This document shows, piece after piece, positions 133-58,607 of a stretch of DNA of 64,000 nucleotides. The stretch comes from Candidatus Nealsonbacteria bacterium. Its GTDB lineage: Bacteria; Patescibacteriota; Minisyncoccia; Minisyncoccales; MHMH01. The notes under the pieces were generated by a model. It worked only from the letters and a program-made list of their open reading frames with translations, had not been told where the DNA came from and searched no databases. The position numbers were made by a program, and so were the translations under genes. Positions within the stretch are counted from its first letter, which is position 1, and each line of letters opens with the position of its first letter. The stretch covers positions 205,197 to 269,196 of the forward strand of contig JACPGX010000001.1 of the NCBI GenBank assembly GCA_016188865.1, read 5' to 3'.

Positions 133-163
133 AAAAATACACCGGTTGAACCGGTGTATTTTT
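133..163. repeat. REP-1 hairpin, 3'-flank copy (aaaaatacaccggtt-g-aaccggtgtattttt)
   Basis: 31-nt perfect palindrome overlapping the RAYT-1 stop codon (162-164). The T-run makes it terminator-like. Confidence 0.9.
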
Positions 164-899
164 ATTCTAAAATTATATTTTTAATTATTTCGAAGCCGGA
201 TTTCAACTCAGTTTTATATAAAATCCAATCTTCAACAGATTTTTTAATTTTATCGGAACTGCCGAAAAATTCTGTAACGAAATCTCTTTTTGTAACTGAC
301 GGAAAATTTGGTATTCCGATATAATCTAAATAGCTAGACCAGCGATATGATTCCAAAAATTTAACAGCTTCCTCAACATCTTTTACTCCCACTTCTTTCC
401 AGTTTTTTTCTAATAATTCAAGCGGATTAGTAAATATATAACAAATCAAAGCCATTAATTGTCTATCATCTTCCACGTGAACTGCTTTAAAACGACCCTG
501 GAATAAAGCGCCAATCCCTTTTCTATTATATTTTTCATTAAAGTATCCAGTATAACCATTAGATAATTTTTTCATGAAAAGAGAAATCCCGCCATCAACT
601 AATTGATGCAAAATTAAATGGTAGTGATTTGGCATCAAACAAAAGCTAATAATCTCTACTAGCGGCTCTCTTTTATCTTTACGATCAGATACACCGGTTG
701 AACCGGTGTATTTCTTATTTTCTTTACGGATTTCTATACGGTCACGCATCTTAACTAATTTTTTATCATTTAATTCATAAAGACAAAAAATAAATCTAAA
801 ATTATCAGAGATTTGCTGAAAAATATTTCTTCTTTCTACTCCCCTATTAAAAATATGATAAATCTGGCCAGTAATAAATTTGGGTCGTTTTATTGCCAT
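162..899 (-). CDS. REP-associated tyrosine transposase-like protein (IS200/Y1 HUH family), paralog 1
   Basis: HUH strand FCLMPNHYHLIL and Tyr helix CYIFTNP. N-terminus MAIKRPKF..GQIYHIFNRG aligns with the paralogs at 26070 and 50608. Start trimmed from 929 to ATG 897-899 by that alignment. Confidence 0.85.
   Translation of the reverse strand: MAIKRPKFITGQIYHIFNRGVERRNIFQQISDNFRFIFCLYELNDKKLVKMRDRIEIRKENKKYTGSTGVSDRKDKREPLVEIISFCLMPNHYHLILHQLVDGGISLFMKKLSNGYTGYFNEKYNRKGIGALFQGRFKAVHVEDDRQLMALICYIFTNPLELLEKNWKEVGVKDVEEAVKFLESYRWSSYLDYIGIPNFPSVTKRDFVTEFFGSSDKIKKSVEDWILYKTELKSGFEIIKNIILE
689..711. repeat. REP-1 hairpin, internal in-frame copy
   Basis: atacaccggtt-g-aaccggtgtat lies inside the RAYT-1 ORF and is translated KYTGSTGVS. 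Confidence 0.9.
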
Positions 900-923
900 A
901 CCTAATTTAATATACCACATAAG

Positions 924-946
924 ATACACCGGTTCAACCGGTGTAT
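924..946. repeat. REP-1 hairpin, 5'-flank copy (loop base c instead of g)
   Basis: atacaccggtt-c-aaccggtgtat lies 24 nt upstream of the RAYT-1 ATG. Confidence 0.9.
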
Positions 947-9025: not shown

Positions 9026-9067
9026 GAGGTCCGACCTCCCGACAAATATGACGGGAGGTCGGACCTC
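9026..9067. repeat. PE hairpin element, intergenic copy (gaggtccgacctcccg-10 nt-cgggaggtcggacctc)
   Basis: 16-bp perfect stem. Arms are identical to the copy inside tsaD (34384-34425). Confidence 0.9.
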
Positions 9068-9073
9068 CCAATA

Positions 9074-10994: not shown

Positions 10995-12281
10995 TTAGAT
11001 GATTTGTTCAATATTCATTGTTCCCATTTTTTCTCCCTCAATAAAGCCCTCCATGGCAGCTTCAGCCAGATAGCCCTGCCGGATCCAATCATTAAGCCAC
11101 TGGTAAGCATATCTGGGATTTTCCTGCAGGCTGCCAAAACCTGATTTCAAAAGCCACCTTTTGTTAAATTCTTCCTGAGAACCAATGGGCGGGGCTATAA
11201 TTATGGGCAATCCCAAAGCAGAATAAAAAGAAAGCTCGGATGGCTTAGTCCACAAAATATCGGTTTTTCTCAGAGCTTCATTAAATTTCTGAAAATAATC
11301 TTCGATATTTTCTTCAAAAATAATCTCTATACTAGGATTGCCTTTTAGCTTTAATTTTTCTAAATTATGCTCAAAATATTCCTTAACTTTTTCTTTAATG
11401 CCAGCGACTAAAATCACCTTAAGTTCTTTCGCCCATATTTTTACTACCAGCGATTTAGCAATCTGGATGCCGATTTCTCTCTGAGCCCCGGCTCCTCCAA
11501 CGGCAAACATTATAGTTAAAGGATGGTCCGAAGATGATGGTAAGTTTCCAAGATAGGTTTCAAGCAAATGCTCGTATTTGCTAAGGTATCTTTTTTGCGG
11601 ATCTAAATTTAAAATTCTACTGCCCAAATCATCTTTAAGATTGCGCATTTCTTCCCCGTCAATAATATCTTGGGGCAAGGGATACCCTGTAAAAAAAATA
11701 TTCTCCGACTTTATCCCGTAAGCTTTAAGTCTCTCCACCACCCTAAGATTGGGAGCGCAATACTTTATTCTGCTCCTACCCGGCTCGAGGGGGGCCCAGG
11801 TTCTGGAAATGTCGGCATCGGCAACAACGCAAAAAATCTCGCCAGGGTAATTAAAGTATTCAGCCATAAAAGCTGGCACGAAAAACGTAGTGACAAATGG
11901 CAAATTTCCGTTCCTCAATTTTAATTCTTCAATAAGATGTCTGCCCCAGTTTTTTTTAATCAGGGAGTAAATTTGTTTTAGCTGAATATTCGACTTAGAC
12001 AAGTCTCTTTTGGGATAATAGCTTAAAATTTCTTGAAGCTTATCCATAACGGCAAAAGCCAGCTGACCAATGATGGGAATCCGTTTGATCCGGGAAATAA
12101 ATTCATAAAATTTTCTTGATTTTTCCCAGATATTCCTGTCTTTGGAAGGAATTCCTTCGTAATTGTTGGCATTGATGATTTTTCCCTCCAAAGCCAGGTG
12201 CCTCAAAGGATAAGCAGTCCTTTGGTGCCCGTAACCCATGTTTACCGCTACCACCCAGGCTTTTTTAGTTGTACTTGCCAT
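10995..12281 (-). CDS. GT-B glycosyltransferase, MGDG-synthase/UgtP-like
   Basis: N-terminal VAVNMGYGH motif and a central GGAGAQ. Overlaps the comEC stop by 34 nt. Confidence 0.5.
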   Translation of the reverse strand: MASTTKKAWVVAVNMGYGHQRTAYPLRHLALEGKIINANNYEGIPSKDRNIWEKSRKFYEFISRIKRIPIIGQLAFAVMDKLQEILSYYPKRDLSKSNIQLKQIYSLIKKNWGRHLIEELKLRNGNLPFVTTFFVPAFMAEYFNYPGEIFCVVADADISRTWAPLEPGRSRIKYCAPNLRVVERLKAYGIKSENIFFTGYPLPQDIIDGEEMRNLKDDLGSRILNLDPQKRYLSKYEHLLETYLGNLPSSSDHPLTIMFAVGGAGAQREIGIQIAKSLVVKIWAKELKVILVAGIKEKVKEYFEHNLEKLKLKGNPSIEIIFEENIEDYFQKFNEALRKTDILWTKPSELSFYSALGLPIIIAPPIGSQEEFNKRWLLKSGFGSLQENPRYAYQWLNDWIRQGYLAEAAMEGFIEGEKMGTMNIEQII

Positions 12282-13684
12282 ACACGTTTATTGTACCACC
12301 AAATAAAGCCAAACAGAATGAAATAAAAAACTATCAGCCAAAGCCAGTGCAAATTGCCCACAGCCATGGAAACTAACGGCATTTTGCTAAACCAATCAAC
12401 AATTTTCGTAATATATGTCAAAGAAAGCCAAACGGGCCAAGACAATAAAAACCCAAGAGGTTGCAAGATAATACCGAAAATTGCAAAAATAAAAATTAAG
12501 ATAGTAATTGGAGCCAAAAAGGGAACTATTAAAATATTAACAACAGGACTCAATAAGGATATTCTGCCAAAATTATAAGCTAAAATCGGCAAAGTAAAAA
12601 CTTGGGCCGAAAGAGTAGCAGATAAAGTGGTTCTTAATGGAAAAACTTTTGGATTAGGTAAAAGCCTTAGCCAATTTGAAAAATACGGCTCTAAATAAAT
12701 AAGGCCTAAAATGGCTAAAAAAGAAAGCTGGAAACCTACGTCTTTCGTCAAGAGAAAAGGATTTTGAACAAGCATAAAAGTTGCCGCAAAAAATACCGCT
12801 CTTGAGCCGGATGACATGCGTCCTAATTTTTTAGCTAAAATAAAAATAACGGCCATAATAAAAGCCCTGACAGCTGAAGCCTGGGCTCCGATCATTAAAA
12901 TGTAAAGAAAAAGCAAAACTATCGAAATATAAAACGGCGCAAAGGAAGATATTATAGAAGAAATAATGGTTATATTCATTCCGGAAACCGCCGCAATATG
13001 GCGGGTGCCGGTAATATTGAGCTTGTCTTTCCATTCTCGGGAAATATTAGATTCTTGGCCGAAAACTAATGCCTCCAAAAAACCTTCTTGCGGCGGCGAA
13101 ATAAAAGAACCGGCGGTATCTCTAAATTTATTTTTAAAAGATAAAATAATTTCCATTATCGGGTTGCCAAACCCGGAACTCATAAACTCAATTTTTGGAA
13201 AACTCATTACTGCCGTAATGCCGTCTTTTTTAAGATAATCACGATAGTTAAAATCATCGAAAACCGGCGGCATTTCCAAACGGCCAATAATTTTTAGTCT
13301 ATCCCCATAATTATATTTCGGATACCTCCCCGCCGTCACCAAAATCGGGCGAGAACCGTTCTCGCCCGATTTTATCACAAGCTTTATGCTAGCAGGCCTG
13401 ACATCGGGTTCTTTAACCACGATTCCGACAAACTCGACATTCCCTTCTTGGGGATAAACAATTTTTGACTCCGCCATCTGATACCGCCAAATTCCCAAAA
13501 CTAAAAACAGTAAGCAAAATCCGCCCGTAGCCAGTTTTTTATAACGCCAAAAAATTGAAATTAAAAATACTCCAATAATTAAAAAACCCAGTAAAAATAA
13601 CTGGGGCATAAAAATAAATGAACTCGCAAAAATTCCTCCTACAAACGCCAGACAAAAATACAAAAATATCCGCGACTTAGTCAT
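12248..13684 (-). CDS. comEC: ComEC/Rec2 DNA-uptake channel protein (no metallo-beta-lactamase domain)
   Basis: N-terminal TM plus OB-like region, HIAAVSGMNITI, many TM segments. Confidence 0.85.
   Translation of the reverse strand: MTKSRIFLYFCLAFVGGIFASSFIFMPQLFLLGFLIIGVFLISIFWRYKKLATGGFCLLFLVLGIWRYQMAESKIVYPQEGNVEFVGIVVKEPDVRPASIKLVIKSGENGSRPILVTAGRYPKYNYGDRLKIIGRLEMPPVFDDFNYRDYLKKDGITAVMSFPKIEFMSSGFGNPIMEIILSFKNKFRDTAGSFISPPQEGFLEALVFGQESNISREWKDKLNITGTRHIAAVSGMNITIISSIISSFAPFYISIVLLFLYILMIGAQASAVRAFIMAVIFILAKKLGRMSSGSRAVFFAATFMLVQNPFLLTKDVGFQLSFLAILGLIYLEPYFSNWLRLLPNPKVFPLRTTLSATLSAQVFTLPILAYNFGRISLLSPVVNILIVPFLAPITILIFIFAIFGIILQPLGFLLSWPVWLSLTYITKIVDWFSKMPLVSMAVGNLHWLWLIVFYFILFGFIWWYNKRVWQVQLKKPGW
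13341..13373. repeat. REP-3-like hairpin variant in-frame in comEC (aaaatcgggcgagaac-c-gttctcgcccgatttt)
   Basis: 33-nt perfect palindrome translated KSGENGSRPIL. It shares the core cgagaaccgttctcg with REP-3. Confidence 0.85.
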
Positions 13685-13777: not shown

Positions 13778-13823
13778 AAAAAATCGTATTATTATTGCCA
13801 TGGCTTTAATTTTACGATTTTTT
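13778..13823. repeat. Imperfect palindrome aaaaaatcgta..gccatggc..tacgatttttt at the 3' end of the 13822-14400 gene
   Basis: Related to the palindrome at 14414-14449. Could act as a terminator and/or a second operator. Confidence 0.6.
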
Positions 13824-14400: not shown

Positions 14401-14413
14401 ATTAATAAATAAT

Positions 14414-14449
14414 ATCGTATAATTAACGCCATGGCAATAATTATACGAT
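14414..14449. promoter_or_regulatory. 36-nt near-perfect palindrome (atcgtataatta..gccatggc..taattatacgat); candidate operator over the promoter
   Basis: Lies 14-49 nt upstream of the ATG at 14400 and contains TATAAT-like boxes. Confidence 0.5.
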
Positions 14450-14522
14450 AAATATTATGAATTATCCGTTACTGCTTACCTAAAAATAAAAAAGTGTCGA
14501 AATGACACTCCTTTGGCTACTC

Positions 14523-23973: not shown

Positions 23974-24009
23974 TGTGTACTATATATCACATATAGATGG
24001 AAAAGTCAA
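23958..24009. promoter_or_regulatory. Face-to-face promoters sharing one palindromic -10 box: TTGACA-17-TATATA-17-AGTCAA
   Basis: Plus strand: -35 at 23958-63 and -10 at 23981-86, driving mfd (ATG 23997). Minus strand: -35 is revcomp of 24004-09 with the same -10, driving the NUDIX leader. Confidence 0.55.
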
Positions 24010-26024
24010 CGGTGCCGGGTGTTAAATCGATTCTAATCGTCAGTATCAACCCCTACTTTTTAGACAGGGAGAATTTTTGGTTTGAAGAAAATATCAAACA
24101 AATACTGGAAGCGCGGAAAAATCAAACCTTCTTTCAAGATAATACCATATATGTAGACGTAGAAAAAAGCCCCGCCTTCGCCAAGGCTTCGGCGGGCAAG
24201 CAGAAAATTAAGCTTTCTGAATTTTTAAGAAAAATTGATGAAATGGGCTATGAAAAAGTTCAAAAGGTCTCCGAGCCCGGAGAATTTTCCCGCCAAGGAG
24301 GAATTATTGATATTTTCCCGTTAAATATAAATTGTGCCGTTAGAATTGAATTTTTCGGCAACTCAATAGAAAACATGGAAAAACTGCCCATTATTATTGA
24401 AAATGAAAAAGAAATCAAAGAAAGAATAAAAAATAAACTGAAAAGGCAGAAAATTTACTCGCAATTGGGAACATTAAAGCCGGGTGATTATTTGGTGCAT
24501 CTAGACCACGGCGTCGGAATTTACAGAGGTCGGACCTCCCAAGGAGGTCCGACCTCAAACGACTCAAACGATTACTACACATTGGAATATGCCCAGAACG
24601 ATAAACTCTATGTTCCGATTGGGCTGGAAAGAAAACTTTCAAGATATGTTGGATTTTCAGAGCCGAAAATATCGCGGCTAAGCTCGCCCGTCTGGATAAA
24701 CACCAAAAGAAAAATTAAAGAAGAAACTGAAAAACTAGCTAAAGAACTTTTGGAAATTTACGCCCAGAGAGAAATTTCAACTCGCCCATATTATATAGAA
24801 GATACGGAAATTGACGCCTTGCTGGCAAGTACTTTTGTTCACGAAGAAACTCCGGATCAAATCCAAGCCATGGAAGAAATTAAAAAAGATTTGGAAGAAA
24901 AAGAAGAGCCAATGGACAGAATTGTTTGCGGCGACGTGGGTTTTGGCAAAACTGAAATTGCCTTAAGGACCATTATTAAAGCGGTCAATTCCGGATATCA
25001 ATCGGCTTTGATTTGCCCAACCACTATTTTGGCCTCGCAGCATTGCCAGACTTTCCAAAAAAGAATTGGTGATCTTCCGATAAAAGTTGAATTATTAAGC
25101 CGTCTTCAATCAAAGAGGGAGCAGAAACAAATAATTCAAAATATCAAAGATGGCAAAACAGATATCGTTATAGGAACCCACCGCCTTTTATCAAATGACG
25201 TTAACTTTAAAAACTTAGGATTGCTGGTTATTGACGATGAACAAAGATTCGGAGTCAGGCAGAAAGAAAAATTAAAAAAAATAAGGACTTCCCTAGATGT
25301 TTTATCGCTTTCAGCCACGCCAATTCCCAGAACCCTCTACTTGGCCATGTCTTCTTTAAAAGATATCAGCATAATTCAAACGCCGCCTGCTCAACGGCTT
25401 CCGATTAAAACTTTGGTAAAACCATGGTCAAAAGAAATCATTAAAAAGGCAATTCAGGAAGAAATTTCGCGCAACGGCCAAGTTTATTACCTGCACAATC
25501 GCGTAGAAACTATTGAAACAGCAAAAAAATTGCTGGAAGATTTACTGCCGAAAGTAAAATTTGGAATTATCCACGGCAAAATGGAAGAAAAAAATTTAAT
25601 AAAGATAATGGATGATTTTACCAATAAAAAAATTGGCGTTTTAATCGCTACCACCATTATTGAAAACGGCCTGGACCTGCCCAATGTCAACACTTTAATT
25701 GCGGCCAATGCCGCCAAACTCGGACTTTCCCAGGCATATCAAATAAGAGGCAGAATCGGCAGGTCGCACATTCAGGCATTCGCTTATTTCTTGCATGGCG
25801 GCAATCTTTCTGAGCTAGCAAAGGAAAGATTAAGAGCTTTAAAAGAGGCGGAAGAGCTTGGTTCGGGATACCGAATTGCCATGAAAGATTTGGAACTTCG
25901 GGGCGCCGGCAACATTCTAGGAAAAGAGCAATCAGGCAACATCAACCATGTGGGACTGAATCTATATTGTCAAATGTTATCCGATGCGATTGAAAAACTG
26001 AAGGCTTACGATTATAATAAATAA
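23997..26024 (+). CDS. mfd: Transcription-repair coupling factor Mfd (short form, 675 aa)
   Basis: RNAP-interaction module PGDYLVHLDHGVGIY, helicase motifs DVGFGKTE and DDEQRFG, and a TRG-like region. Confidence 0.9.
   Translation: MEKSTVPGVKSILIVSINPYFLDRENFWFEENIKQILEARKNQTFFQDNTIYVDVEKSPAFAKASAGKQKIKLSEFLRKIDEMGYEKVQKVSEPGEFSRQGGIIDIFPLNINCAVRIEFFGNSIENMEKLPIIIENEKEIKERIKNKLKRQKIYSQLGTLKPGDYLVHLDHGVGIYRGRTSQGGPTSNDSNDYYTLEYAQNDKLYVPIGLERKLSRYVGFSEPKISRLSSPVWINTKRKIKEETEKLAKELLEIYAQREISTRPYYIEDTEIDALLASTFVHEETPDQIQAMEEIKKDLEEKEEPMDRIVCGDVGFGKTEIALRTIIKAVNSGYQSALICPTTILASQHCQTFQKRIGDLPIKVELLSRLQSKREQKQIIQNIKDGKTDIVIGTHRLLSNDVNFKNLGLLVIDDEQRFGVRQKEKLKKIRTSLDVLSLSATPIPRTLYLAMSSLKDISIIQTPPAQRLPIKTLVKPWSKEIIKKAIQEEISRNGQVYYLHNRVETIETAKKLLEDLLPKVKFGIIHGKMEEKNLIKIMDDFTNKKIGVLIATTIIENGLDLPNVNTLIAANAAKLGLSQAYQIRGRIGRSHIQAFAYFLHGGNLSELAKERLRALKEAEELGSGYRIAMKDLELRGAGNILGKEQSGNINHVGLNLYCQMLSDAIEKLKAYDYNK
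24526..24556. repeat. PE hairpin element, short-loop copy in-frame in mfd (gaggtcggacctcc-caa-ggaggtccgacctc)
   Basis: 14-bp perfect stem translated RGRTSQGGPTS. The arm sequence matches the copies at 9026 and 34384. Confidence 0.9.
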
Positions 26025-26030
26025 ATTATC

Positions 26031-26057
26031 AATCTTACGAGGCGAAGCCTCGTAAAT
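26031..26057. repeat. REP-2 hairpin, 5'-flank copy (ttacgaggc-gaa-gcctcgtaa)
   Basis: Lies 12 nt upstream of the RAYT-2 ATG. Confidence 0.9.
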
Positions 26058-26069
26058 TCGTAAATTTTA

Positions 26070-26783
26070 ATGAAGAGAGTAATATTCGCCAAAGATCAAA
26101 TCTATCATGTTTATAATCGCGGTGTAGAAAAACGAAATATCTTTTTAGATGATAAAGATTATTTTCGGTTTATTCACAATCTCTTTGAATTTAACGATGA
26201 AAAACCAGCAGAAAATATTTATTATAAACAACCAATGCTTCAGTCGCAGAAAATACAATCTTACGAGGCTTCGCCTCGTAAGATTAATATGCCTAGAAAA
26301 TTACTAGTAGAAATTATGGCATTTTGTCTGATGCCCAATCACTATCATTTATTGCTAAGACAAAAACAAGATAGGGGGATCACCAGATTTATGCAAAAAT
26401 TAGGTACTGGATATTCTATGTATTTTAATCAAAAGCACGAAAGAACCGGAATTTTATTCCAGGGACCGTTCAAGGCCATTTTAGTCGATAGGGAAACTTA
26501 TTTTTATTATTTACCATATTACATTCACTTTAATCCCCTAGATTTGATTGAGCCAGAATGGAGAAATGGCAAAATTAATAATTACAAAGAAGCCTTAAAT
26601 TTTCTGGAAAATTATCGCTGGTCAAGCCATCTTGATTATATTGGCAAGAAAAATTTTCCCTCGGTGACCCAACGGGAATTTCTTTTAGAATACCATCAAA
26701 ATGGAAACCGATATAAACAATCTATTGAAAATTGGCTAAAAGAAATACAACTAGAAAAAATAAAAGATATAATGCTGGAATAA
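26070..26783 (+). CDS. REP-associated tyrosine transposase-like protein (IS200/Y1 HUH family), paralog 2
   Basis: DQIYHVYNRG, FCLMPNHYHLLL, YYIHFNP. Confidence 0.85.
   Translation: MKRVIFAKDQIYHVYNRGVEKRNIFLDDKDYFRFIHNLFEFNDEKPAENIYYKQPMLQSQKIQSYEASPRKINMPRKLLVEIMAFCLMPNHYHLLLRQKQDRGITRFMQKLGTGYSMYFNQKHERTGILFQGPFKAILVDRETYFYYLPYYIHFNPLDLIEPEWRNGKINNYKEALNFLENYRWSSHLDYIGKKNFPSVTQREFLLEYHQNGNRYKQSIENWLKEIQLEKIKDIMLE
26257..26285. repeat. REP-2 hairpin, internal in-frame copy (loop inverted: ttc)
   Basis: aatcttacgaggc-ttc-gcctcgtaagatt, translated QSYEASPRKI. Confidence 0.9.
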
Positions 26784-26811
26784 ATCTTACGAGGCGAAGC
26801 CTCGTAAGATT
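26783..26811. repeat. REP-2 hairpin, 3'-flank copy
   Basis: aatcttacgaggc-gaa-gcctcgtaagatt, starting at the last base of the stop codon. Confidence 0.9.
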
Positions 26812-50576: not shown

Positions 50577-50607
50577 AAAACTGACGAGAACCGTTCTCGT
50601 CAGTTTT
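50577..50607. repeat. REP-3 hairpin, 3'-flank copy (aaaactgacgagaac-c-gttctcgtcagtttt)
   Basis: Ends one base before the RAYT-3 stop codon. Preceded by a partial duplicate, ctgacgaaaa. Confidence 0.9.
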
Positions 50608-51333
50608 TTATTCGATGGCAACACGTTGAGAATCAGCTAATTCTTTTTTGAACTGAAGCCAATCGTTAACGAATCTTTGCCCTTCGCCCGCTCCGCCGAC
50701 TGTTTCAAATAAAAACTCTCTGCTGGTTACTGAAGGAAAATTCCTCTTGCCTAAATAGTCAGAATAACTTGACCATCGGTAATTTTCTAAAAATTCTATT
50801 ATTTCTTGCAATTTCCTGCCGCTAATTCCCCTTTCCTTCCAATTCTGAACTAAAATTGCCACTGGGTTTGTATGAATATAAACGAAAACTGTTATTAATT
50901 GTTTATCATCTTTAACGTGGACTATTTTATATTTTCCCTGAAACAGGTGGCCACTTCTTTTATATTTTTTATTATAATATCCGCCGTATCCCGCCCCAAT
51001 TTTTCTCATAAACTTGCTTATTCCTCCATTTCTTAACTGTCTTACCAGCAGATGCGCGTGATTCGGCATCAAACAAAACGCTAAAATCTCCAATAAACAT
51101 TCCCTGCCCGTATGTCTTTTATACGAACTATCTAAACTGACGAGAACGGTTCTCGTCAGTTTTTGTTCTTGACGATAGTATGAAGAAGTAGGTTTTTCAT
51201 CATTGAATTCAAATAAATCATGAATCATTCTAAAATAATCTTTTTGATCTTTGAAAAGCTTTAACCCTTCTACGGCTCTAATAACGATGTGATAAATTTC
51301 GCCGTTTACTAATGGTGGTCGTTTTATTGGCAT
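50608..51333 (-). CDS. REP-associated tyrosine transposase-like protein (IS200/Y1 HUH family), paralog 3
   Basis: GEIYHIVIRA, FCLMPNHAHLLV, VYIHTNP. Confidence 0.85.
   Translation of the reverse strand: MPIKRPPLVNGEIYHIVIRAVEGLKLFKDQKDYFRMIHDLFEFNDEKPTSSYYRQEQKLTRTVLVSLDSSYKRHTGRECLLEILAFCLMPNHAHLLVRQLRNGGISKFMRKIGAGYGGYYNKKYKRSGHLFQGKYKIVHVKDDKQLITVFVYIHTNPVAILVQNWKERGISGRKLQEIIEFLENYRWSSYSDYLGKRNFPSVTSREFLFETVGGAGEGQRFVNDWLQFKKELADSQRVAIE
51134..51162. repeat. REP-3 hairpin, internal in-frame copy (centre g)
   Basis: aaactgacgagaac-g-gttctcgtcagttt, translated KLTRTVLVSL. Confidence 0.9.
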
Positions 51334-51364
51334 AAAACTGACGAGAACCGTTCTCGTCAGTTTT
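51334..51364. repeat. REP-3 hairpin, 5'-flank copy
   Basis: Starts at the base next to the ATG (51331-33), leaving no room for an SD sequence. Confidence 0.9.
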
Positions 51365-51401
51365 ATTATAACGGAATAAATTTAAATGAAAAGCCCTGAG
51401 C

Positions 51402-55966: not shown

Positions 55967-55996
55967 TCAACAAAAAAGGACGCTAGGCGTCCTTTG
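55967..55996 (-). terminator. Terminator/-35 cassette, copy 1 (caacaaaaaaggacgctaggcgtcctttg)
   Basis: On the minus strand this reads AAAGGACGC-CUA-GCGUCCUUUUUU, followed directly by GTTGAC. Confidence 0.75.
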
Positions 55997-57590: not shown

Positions 57591-57621
57591 AAAACTGACG
57601 AGAACCATTCTCGGCAGTTTT
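57591..57621. repeat. REP-3 hairpin, solo degenerate copy (two mismatches) acting as a terminator
   Basis: aaaactgacgagaac-c-attctcggcagtttt. Confidence 0.8.
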
Positions 57622-57958: not shown

Positions 57959-58041
57959 ATTATATTCACCTCCTTTTTAATGTGCCGCATAATTATAGAG
58001 TACATCTTAGTTCAACGCAAAAAATCTGTCAAGACATCGTA

Positions 58042-58087
58042 TTACGAGACCCGGACTCGTAAAAAATTACGAGTCCGGATCTCGTAA
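58042..58087. repeat. Inverted REP doublet (REPIN-like): ttacgag-acccgga-ctcgtaa / ttacgag-tccggat-ctcgtaa
   Basis: The two hairpins are reverse complements of each other apart from one base. Their stems equal the REP-2 stem. Confidence 0.8.
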
Positions 58088-58104
58088 AACTAGCGGAAAC
58101 CGAA

Positions 58105-58134
58105 ACAACAAAAAAGGACGCTAGGCGTCCTTTG
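58105..58134 (-). terminator. Terminator cassette, copy 2
   Basis: Hairpin identical to copy 1. The -35 part is degenerate (TTGTTG). Confidence 0.7.
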
Positions 58135-58577: not shown

Positions 58578-58607
58578 GTCAACAAAAAAGGACGCTAAGC
58601 GTCCTTT
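58578..58607 (-). terminator. Terminator/-35 cassette, copy 3 (loop taa); contains the etfA stop codon
   Basis: The 5' arm encodes the EtfA C-terminus ..TKDA. GTTGAC follows. Confidence 0.75.

Follow-up and report, generated by a model that had tools for sequence, protein, structure and literature searches.

Why would the gene of a presumed DNA endonuclease carry, in its own reading frame, a perfect copy of the palindrome that also stands at both of its ends? The question is raised by a 64-kb stretch of DNA (termed the window in what follows) from a Candidatus Nealsonbacteria metagenome-assembled genome (MAG). The window contains three genes related to RAYTs, the tyrosine transposases associated with repetitive extragenic palindromic (REP) sequences; five such paralogs are found on the 271-kb contig to which it belongs. 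Paralog 1 has one copy of its palindrome at each flank and a third within its open reading frame (ORF), at the sites that an initial annotation of the DNA had described. That annotation took an in-frame cognate REP in a RAYT gene to be undescribed, which is not so. In-frame REP insertions have been reported in the tnpAREP genes of subclass 2.4, where they were read as tolerated in a peripheral variable region (Quentin et al. 2018, BMC Genomics 19:475, PMC6006769), and a catalogue of in-frame REPs spans many genes, repair genes in particular (Di Nocera et al. 2013, PMC3733652). The present case departs from the subclass 2.4 one in RAYT subclass, site within the gene, type of hairpin and prevalence of the arrangement.

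How RAYTs and REPs recognise each other, spread and co-evolve is a question not yet settled. The ultra-small genomes of Patescibacteria (the Candidate Phyla Radiation, CPR), here groundwater bacteria, keep many diverged RAYT paralogs (approximately one per 50 kb here), a fact that needs explaining.

RAYT-like genes and their three palindromes

The family is large, with >6,800 homologs at E < 1e-10. For comparison we used 80 genome loci and 80 metagenome loci (L001-L160) from Patescibacteria relatives. Perfect hairpins were scanned in each gene ±150 nt, and 147 genes were evaluable for cognate copies. Enrichment was measured in 159 genes, by setting nt 130-260 against four other 130-nt windows of the same genes. 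The background for palindrome searches of the 64-kb window was a set of 100 dinucleotide shuffles.

The three proteins match the Pfam family Y1_Tnp (PF01797) with 33-43 bits against a gathering score of 23. With the NCBIfam equivalog REP_Tyr_transpos (NF047646) they score 36-45 bits, below its cut-off of 80, and on these profile scores they are classed as relatives, not equivalogs, of the E. coli-type RAYT. Their catalytic motifs are NHYH or NHAH for the HuH strand and YIFTNP, YIHFNP or YIHTNP (Y-x-x-x-N-P) around the tyrosine. Residues H92, H94, Y154, N158 and P159 are invariant in 43 sequences. The HuH and Y motifs are present in essentially all 139 evaluable genes, varying only at the final P, and lie a constant 62-66 aa apart; no pseudogene was found among the evaluable family genes. 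Further motifs are FQG and, in a tail of 85 aa, RWSS. No Pfam helix-turn-helix (HTH) domain was matched in the CPR proteins at E up to 0.01. An AlphaFold2 model of paralog 1 (pLDDT 84) finds as its best match among solved structures 4er8_A, the E. coli TnpAREP with bound REP hairpin (Foldseek E 4.7e-6, TM 0.66 on the target), followed by the IS608 and ISDra2 TnpA proteins, which bears out the initial designation of these genes as RAYT-like. The model has pLDDT <50 at aa 51-58 and 63-73, and the latter segment covers the peptide encoded by the internal palindrome (aa 63-71).

The palindrome ATACACCGGTT-N-AACCGGTGTAT of paralog 1 occurs three times in the window (137-159, 689-711 and 924-946), even when three mismatches are allowed, and has no match in the 100 shuffles. 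The 15-bp stem of its 3' copy overlaps the TAA stop codon (162-164). Paralogs 2 and 3, which share 46-47% protein identity with paralog 1, repeat the layout with palindromes of their own, likewise without a match in the shuffles (Table 1). Distances from the 5' to the internal copy are 235, 226 and 201 nt in paralogs 1, 2 and 3, and from the internal to the 3' copy 552, 526 and 556 nt; the similar spacing already noted in the initial annotation (∼200-235 and ∼525-555 nt) simply reflects homologous gene structure. The two paralogs outside the window have the triple layout too, each with its own stems, and identity among all five is 45-75%. Folded as single-stranded DNA, the nine copies of the three paralogs reach between -8.7 and -15.1 kcal/mol (z -4.5 to -9.8). 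The stems show perfect pairing and full symmetry, and the REP feet are A/T-rich and variable (ATAC.., AATCTTAC.., AAACTGAC..). None of the hairpins has an Rfam match. In an alignment of the three paralogs the peptides that the hairpins encode fall where conservation is lowest, after a conserved N-terminal module and before the HuH strand.

Table 1. Positions in the window of the RAYT-like genes, their palindromes and a promoter-like site
Feature	Position	Strand	Evidence or remark
RAYT-like Y1/HUH gene, paralog 1 (245 aa)	162-899	-	ORF; Pfam Y1_Tnp 33.4 bits; AlphaFold2 pLDDT 84; best PDB match 4er8_A
Paralog-1 palindrome, 5' flank copy (11-bp stem, 1-nt loop)	924-946		DNA fold -9.8 kcal/mol, z -5.2
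Paralog-1 palindrome, internal in-frame copy	689-711		Encodes KYTGSTGVS, aa 63-71; DNA fold -10.1 kcal/mol
Paralog-1 palindrome, 3' flank copy, 15-bp stem including A5/T5	133-163 (core 137-159)		Overlaps stop codon; terminator-like
Promoter-like site TTGAAC-17 nt-TG-TATATT, paralog 1	909-937	-	Consensus match only
RAYT-like gene, paralog 2 (237 aa)	26070-26783	+	ORF, Pfam, motifs
Paralog-2 palindrome, 5' flank copy	26031-26058 (perfect stem 26035-26055)		7 nt past mfd stop codon
Paralog-2 palindrome, internal in-frame copy, 13-bp stem	26257-26285		Encodes QSYEASPRKI; loop inverted relative to both flanks
Paralog-2 palindrome, 3' flank copy	26783-26811		Begins on final base of stop codon
RAYT-like gene, paralog 3 (241 aa; HuH motif NHAH)	50608-51333	-	ORF, Pfam, motifs
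Paralog-3 palindrome, 5' flank copy, 17-bp stem	51332-51366		Last two bases are A and T of start codon
Paralog-3 palindrome, internal in-frame copy, 14-bp stem	51134-51162		Palindrome search, DNA fold
Paralog-3 palindrome, 3' flank copy	50577-50607		Adjoins stop codon
Paralog-3 palindrome, solo intergenic copy, slightly degenerate (2 mismatches)	57593-57619		Palindrome search

The layout proves to be a trait of the family, as enrichment and cognate counts in the related loci agree. Perfect stems of at least 8 bp occur in nt 130-260 of 82 of the 159 genes, against 0-10 of 159 in the four control windows; for stems of at least 10 bp the figures are 54 and 0-4. Among the 147 evaluable genes, a cognate 5'/3' pair is found in 83, an internal cognate copy in 67 and all three copies in 51. 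Internal copies are centred at nt 120-270 in 64 of 69 cases. Among 31 genes that have paired flanks and no perfect internal copy, 19 have a near-perfect cognate copy in the linker (0/124 control windows), so that ∼82% of flank-paired genes carry a perfect or near-perfect internal copy. Internal hairpins unrelated to the flanks are rare (8/62) and most of them are near-cognate. Genes lacking the internal copy, or bearing an unrelated one, are thus not the routine case that the initial annotation had named as the finding that would overturn its view. The genes can be described as REPtron-like units, and the RAYT subfamily to which they belong has been found so far in Patescibacteria. Three family members lie on contigs binned with Spirochaetia, Nanoarchaeota and Nitrospiraceae MAGs (L023, L041 and L078), which could be mis-binned CPR contigs or cases of horizontal transfer.

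The stop codon marks the beginning of the 3' copy (median +2), and ∼20 nt separate the end of the 5' copy from the start codon. The main internal site lies before the HuH strand, with the hairpin ending ∼50 nt upstream of the codons for PNH. Several genes (paralog 3, L021, L066, L067, L074, L075 and L080) have a 5' stem that extends up to or into the start codon. The internal site falls in a linker of ∼30 aa, predicted to be disordered and rich in K, R and E, between helix A and the HuH strand. This linker is missing in the two non-CPR relatives examined, from Legionella and Acetoanaerobium, in which no palindromes were found; in the Legionella plasmid relative the distance from IYH to PNH is ∼44 aa. 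Five genes of one clade (L049, L060, L070, L040 and L024) have a second internal site, just after Y-x-x-x-N-P at nt 450-515, where a palindrome encoding YRGSTSI-like peptides takes the place of the otherwise conserved PEWK. Four of the five have no linker copy.

Several simple accounts of the internal copy can be set aside. Chance or an assembly artefact, the latter a possibility raised at the outset, is rejected by the absence of shuffle matches and by the recurrence of the layout in 160 independent contigs, from independent assemblies of many studies. Linkers of equal length, whether or not they hold a hairpin, rule out a simple presence/absence insertion. Clades differ in the frame in which the palindrome is read (28/25/8 for the three frames) and its peptides are unrelated between clades, which excludes a conserved peptide motif. 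Loop orientation among the three copies is random, the four combinations being about equally frequent, and no fixed relative orientation is kept. As an intrinsic terminator in the sense direction only 1 of 63 internal hairpins would qualify. An antisense terminator-like tail is seen in the paralog-1 clade only, and is due to Lys, Arg and Glu codons.

Concerted evolution of the three sites

In the paralog-1 clade (62-74% aa identity) the internal hairpin stands at the orthologous codon position. Its stems vary from locus to locus through compensated pairs (ATACACCGGTT, ATACACGGGTT, ATACACAGGTT, ATGCCGGGGTC, TACAGGGGTT and GTCATAGGTG) and are matched among the three sites of a locus. A neutral, decaying relic is ruled out by a perfect or near-perfect palindrome at the orthologous site of proteins so diverged. 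Across the family the internal stem is identical to the 5' stem in 42 of 58 genes and to the 3' stem in 34 of 55. Change is rapid: at a protein distance of 15-30%, orthologs already differ in 4 of 9 arm positions.

Protein and hairpin diversify together, as had been supposed from the three paralogs of the window: protein distance correlates with hairpin distance (Mantel rho 0.28, a value reached in 0 of 999 permutations), and clade-level tables give the same picture. The further claim that each paralog uses a completely different hairpin sequence holds for the stems. It does not hold for the apex, where a semi-conserved motif, G-R-R-G/A-T/A-Y, is common to the family.

Covariation was measured in a centre-anchored alignment of 61 internal copies, which were chosen for perfect stems, so that their percentage of paired positions is uninformative. 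Two-sided changes are found at all 11 stem pairs, in 207 cells against 59.6 ± 6.1 in shuffles. G-U pairs are nearly absent from this alignment, a figure subject to the same ascertainment. Stem mismatches on the sense strand comprise 2 G-T, 5 A-C and 6 others, with no wobble enrichment. The concerted evolution of the three sites acts at the level of DNA.

Two cases illustrate the process. L106 has hairpin doublets at all three sites (-128..-58, internal +206..+251 and 3' +875..+940, counted from the start codon); its 5' and internal doublets have an identical 10-nt spacer, CAGATTCTCG, and its linker and ORF are ∼24 aa longer. To judge by the shared spacer, this is the clearest copy-paste event seen. 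Between L092 and L096, whose DNA is 95% identical, the 5' hairpin has changed by one exactly compensated pair and the loop of the 3' hairpin is flipped.

Outside the units, cognate palindromes are dispersed in the manner of REPs but sparsely, with 17 solo copies in 559 kb (∼1 per 33 kb) and 0-1 per paralog family in the window. No conserved synteny was found, and the orthologs of paralog 1 do not adjoin ftsH. Between diverged copies in different contexts (L002/L003, L136/L154) homology starts and ends at the flank hairpins. No near-identical paralogs were seen. In ∼0.8 Mb of related DNA no truncated gene copies, nor fragments bounded at the linker, were found inside contigs, and the only three gene fragments lie at contig ends. 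With no near-identical or truncated copies, and with solo copies so few, the units behave as old, locus-bound REPtrons and not as active insertion sequences. In L081 and L082 (2451 in each) a common block (1.84 kb, 91% identity) includes the RAYT unit and a Trp/Tyr-tRNA synthetase gene. On the left the block stops exactly at the outer edge of the 5' hairpin, upstream of which lie different phosphoglucomutase-family paralogs (29% identity), and its right end has no hairpin. Transposition was rejected for this block on account of the included tRNA-synthetase gene and of the right end, leaving a rearrangement breakpoint at the hairpin.

Explanations for the internal copy

We lean, without great firmness, towards reading the internal copy as a cognate REP that a permissive loop accommodates, kept perfect and re-matched to its flanks by local copying and by correction within the palindrome. 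The gene would encode an endonuclease of the Y1/HUH type, acting on single-stranded DNA, and would carry the palindromic hairpin cognate to it, one copy of which sits between helix A and the HuH strand in a linker that is structurally permissive. The hairpin, and sometimes a whole doublet with its spacer, would pass by copying from one of the three neighbouring sites to another, with the enzyme, in cis on its own locus, as the likeliest agent. Template-switch correction within the palindrome would keep the stems Watson-Crick perfect, and the protein would tolerate any peptide that the palindrome happens to encode. The anatomy, its prevalence, the co-variation and the predicted disorder of the site are shown by the data above, and from there on we infer that the enzyme binds or cleaves its cognate hairpins; it presumably drives the homogenisation of the three sites, and the internal copy is probably neutral for the protein. 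Among the roles offered by the initial annotation, a preferred REP landing site fits best, given the second permissive site, the doublet within the L106 ORF and the in-frame palindromes in a comEC-like gene and in mfd that are described below.

A number of observations weigh against local copying as the whole account. Occupancy of the linker site is very high across paralog clades of ∼45% identity, yet solo copies are rare, so that a pure passenger model would need a very strong preference for cis action or for the site. No fresh insertion into an empty linker site was caught among the loci, the L106 doublet excepted, and the IYH-to-PNH distance has a median of 74 aa whether or not a hairpin is detectable (p = 0.57). 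In L032, L038 and L129, moreover, the internal palindromes are perfect and differ from the flanks by compensated pairs, which implies that the palindrome is itself subject to maintenance, as would be expected of a functional element. This last point lends some weight to the possibility, which we regard with considerable doubt, that the internal palindrome is a selected cis-autoregulatory DNA site. The encoded protein would bind all three copies, block or loop its own gene and so hold enzyme levels down. The copies could act as double-stranded inverted repeats with lac-like O1/O2/O3 looping or, where transcription or replication exposes them, as single-stranded hairpins or cruciforms. In favour of such a site, the internal copy is near-universal at one position in a very diverse family and matched to the paralog's own flanks, and it stays a perfect palindrome even where it is unlike them; the second-site genes that lack a linker copy look as if one internal copy were wanted somewhere, and the strict Watson-Crick pairing points to a DNA-level element. 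At the 5' end, the stem of paralog 3 takes in part of the start codon, and there are two leads that are no more than that: the loop region of the paralog-1 5' palindrome coincides with the -35-like hexamer of its promoter-like site, and Shine-Dalgarno-like motifs before the start are nearly absent, in 5 of 149 RAYT genes against 54 of 311 other long ORFs of the same loci, whose starts were crudely assigned. Autoregulation sits badly, however, with the random orientation of the loops, with the drift of reading frame and exact position and with the ∼18% of flank-paired genes that have no internal copy. The promoter overlap is confined to paralog 1 and is a consensus match, in-frame palindromes occur in unrelated genes too, and the mutational mechanisms of palindrome correction and local copying account for maintenance without selection. 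Equally tentative is the proposal of an obligatory internal palindrome, selected as a cis-regulatory or processing site, through which enzyme and substrate would be inherited, regulated and re-specified as a unit. If true, this 'substrate-in-gene' coupling would be the driving force behind a radiation that has given CPR genomes thousands of orthogonal enzyme-hairpin pairs.

An action of the three copies at the mRNA level is improbable; their pairing, local or over a distance, would attenuate translation or make an RNase III substrate and so destroy the transposase message. Any two copies of a palindrome are mutually complementary, and the minimum-free-energy fold of the paralog-1 transcript (-232 kcal/mol, z -6.9) does join the 5' and internal copies over at least 23 bp; the 3' copy also resembles an intrinsic terminator. 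IS200 is translationally repressed by a 5' stem-loop, which offers a parallel. Against this, G-U wobble is not in excess among the sense-strand mismatches, and G-U pairs are nearly absent from the alignment, with the ascertainment noted above. Perfect complementarity in trans needs inverted loops, but identical and inverted relations between copies are equally common; internal hairpins almost never have the form of a sense-direction terminator, and the 5' copy may lie outside the transcript. Less credible still, and indeed very unlikely, is a recombination or excision point, at which the enzyme would excise, invert or swap the N-terminal (∼230 nt) or catalytic (∼550 nt) module, with self-inactivation or the shuffling of modules between paralogs as the outcome. 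Y1 transposases of the IS200/IS605 group do excise the DNA between two hairpins. The limits of homology at the flank hairpins and the L081/L082 breakpoint at the outer edge of the 5' hairpin are also as such a process would leave them. The self-excision that the initial annotation had entertained nevertheless finds no support, with no linker-bounded fragments inside contigs in the ∼0.8 Mb of related DNA, gene fragments at contig ends only, and the HuH and Y motifs intact in all genes. Nor was a mosaic of N-terminal and C-terminal phylogenies seen, although none was sought.

Because the ORFs carry their presumed substrate, the homologs form a catalogue of enzyme-hairpin pairs that can be read from single short metagenomic contigs. 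Such a catalogue could support a specificity code for Y1/HUH endonucleases, and hence orthogonal reagents for protein-ssDNA tagging. REP copying itself could also be tested directly in this family, since population data should reveal conversions among three sites that lie only a few hundred bases from one another.

Relation to known systems and other palindromes of the window

No paper on RAYTs in CPR bacteria was found in the literature searched. In the subclass 2.4 genes (PMC6006769), as here, REPs flank the gene and sit within the ORF with the frame kept, in a variable peripheral region, and those REPs can be fully palindromic ('double foot') like the CPR hairpins. The two differ in motifs (NH[IFV]H, WQ and YIxNNP without a C-terminal tail domain in subclass 2.4; NH[YA]H, FQG and YI[FH]xNP with the RWSS tail in CPR) and in site, which in subclass 2.4 is between HuH and Y in a region of variable length and in CPR is mainly before HuH in a linker of near-constant length. 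The GT[AG]G foot of subclass 2.4 REPs is missing in the CPR hairpins. Subclass 2.4 belongs to Cyanobacteria and Bacteroidetes, the present genes to Patescibacteria, and concerted evolution of internal and flank copies, seen in CPR, is not reported for subclass 2.4.

The closest motif signature is that of subclass 2.1 TnpAY1, also termed Group 1 RAYT or TIRYT (PMC6006769; Bertels 2017, PMC5581495; PMC3733652), a match judged by inspecting alignments against Table 1 of PMC6006769 and not by a subclass profile. Shared features are NH[YF]H, FQ, Y[IV]HxNP, a serine (SS) motif after the core, a length of ∼238 aa and several diverged copies per genome. Unlike the CPR genes, which have palindromes and no detected HTH, subclass 2.1 is reported without REPs, with terminal inverted repeats in some members and with a distal C-terminal HTH (DnaA_C-like). 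A tblastn search of a plasmid collection matched only the Legionella and Acetoanaerobium genes, both of subclass 2.1 type; besides lacking palindromes, they have a connector between helix A and HuH that is ∼30 aa shorter than in CPR.

The E. coli REPtron (TnpAREP/RayT, REP/BIME, 4ER8) is likewise a Y1 HUH enzyme flanked by cognate hairpins, with REP families specific to the paralog. It differs in being a single-copy gene with high-copy, imperfect REPs that bear a GTAG guide tetranucleotide and none of which lies inside the gene. RAYT Groups 2 and 3 are typically present in one copy per genome (Bertels 2017), against the five paralogs on the 271-kb contig here. Rickettsia RPEs and intragenic REPs (Di Nocera et al. 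2013) are also in-frame palindromes in protein surface loops, often in DNA-repair genes. They are scattered and lineage-specific, whereas the CPR palindrome occupies one site in the gene of its own enzyme, in most members, and co-varies with the flanks.

IS200/IS605 elements resemble the CPR units in a Y1 HUH gene bounded by subterminal hairpins, in homology that ends at the hairpins and in a 5' stem-loop by the start codon. In class 1 of these elements, however, the motif is Y-x-x-x-Q, the left-end and right-end hairpins are distinct and imperfect, and copies are near-identical; the CPR units have Y-x-x-x-N-P, identical perfect palindromes at both ends and old paralogs of 45-75% identity.

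The window holds further palindromes. A 33-nt perfect palindrome, AAAATCGGGCGAGAAC-C-GTTCTCGCCCGATTTT (13341-13373), lies in frame in an ORF for a comEC-like membrane protein (478 aa, 12248-13684, minus strand). It is translated as KSGENGSRPIL and has an apical core like that of the hairpin class of paralog 3 and P0051; a similar solo copy is found 1.5 kb from P0051 (L164). The mfd-like ORF (23997-26024) has an in-frame doublet at 24526-24556, GAGGTCGGACCTC + GAGGTCCGACCTC, that encodes GRTSQGGPTS. It consists of two 13-nt palindromes with opposite loops and is REPIN-like, with its RAYT partner outside the window. An intergenic REPIN-like doublet, TTACGAGACCCGGACTCGTAA / TTACGAGTCCGGATCTCGTAA (58039-58090), and a solo palindrome, GGGAGGTCGGACCTCCC (9053-9069), represent families of low-copy hairpins that have no RAYT gene in the window.

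Unrelated to the RAYT hairpins are two long imperfect palindromes, AT-rich and centred on GCCATGGC (13778-13823 and 14401-14462), whose arms of 27-35 nt are 80-85% complementary. After ftsH there is a bidirectional terminator-like hairpin, AAAGAGCGAGAA-GTG-TTCTCGCTCTTT (961-987), whose CGAGAA/TTCTCG core is common to hairpins of the paralog-3 clade (e.g. L006, L033 and L036), which may point to a kinship between REPs and ordinary terminators in these genomes. The hairpin AAAGGACGCT-N-AGCGTCCTTT has three intergenic copies (55975-55995, 58113-58133 and 58587-58607) and forms a small terminator-like repeat family.

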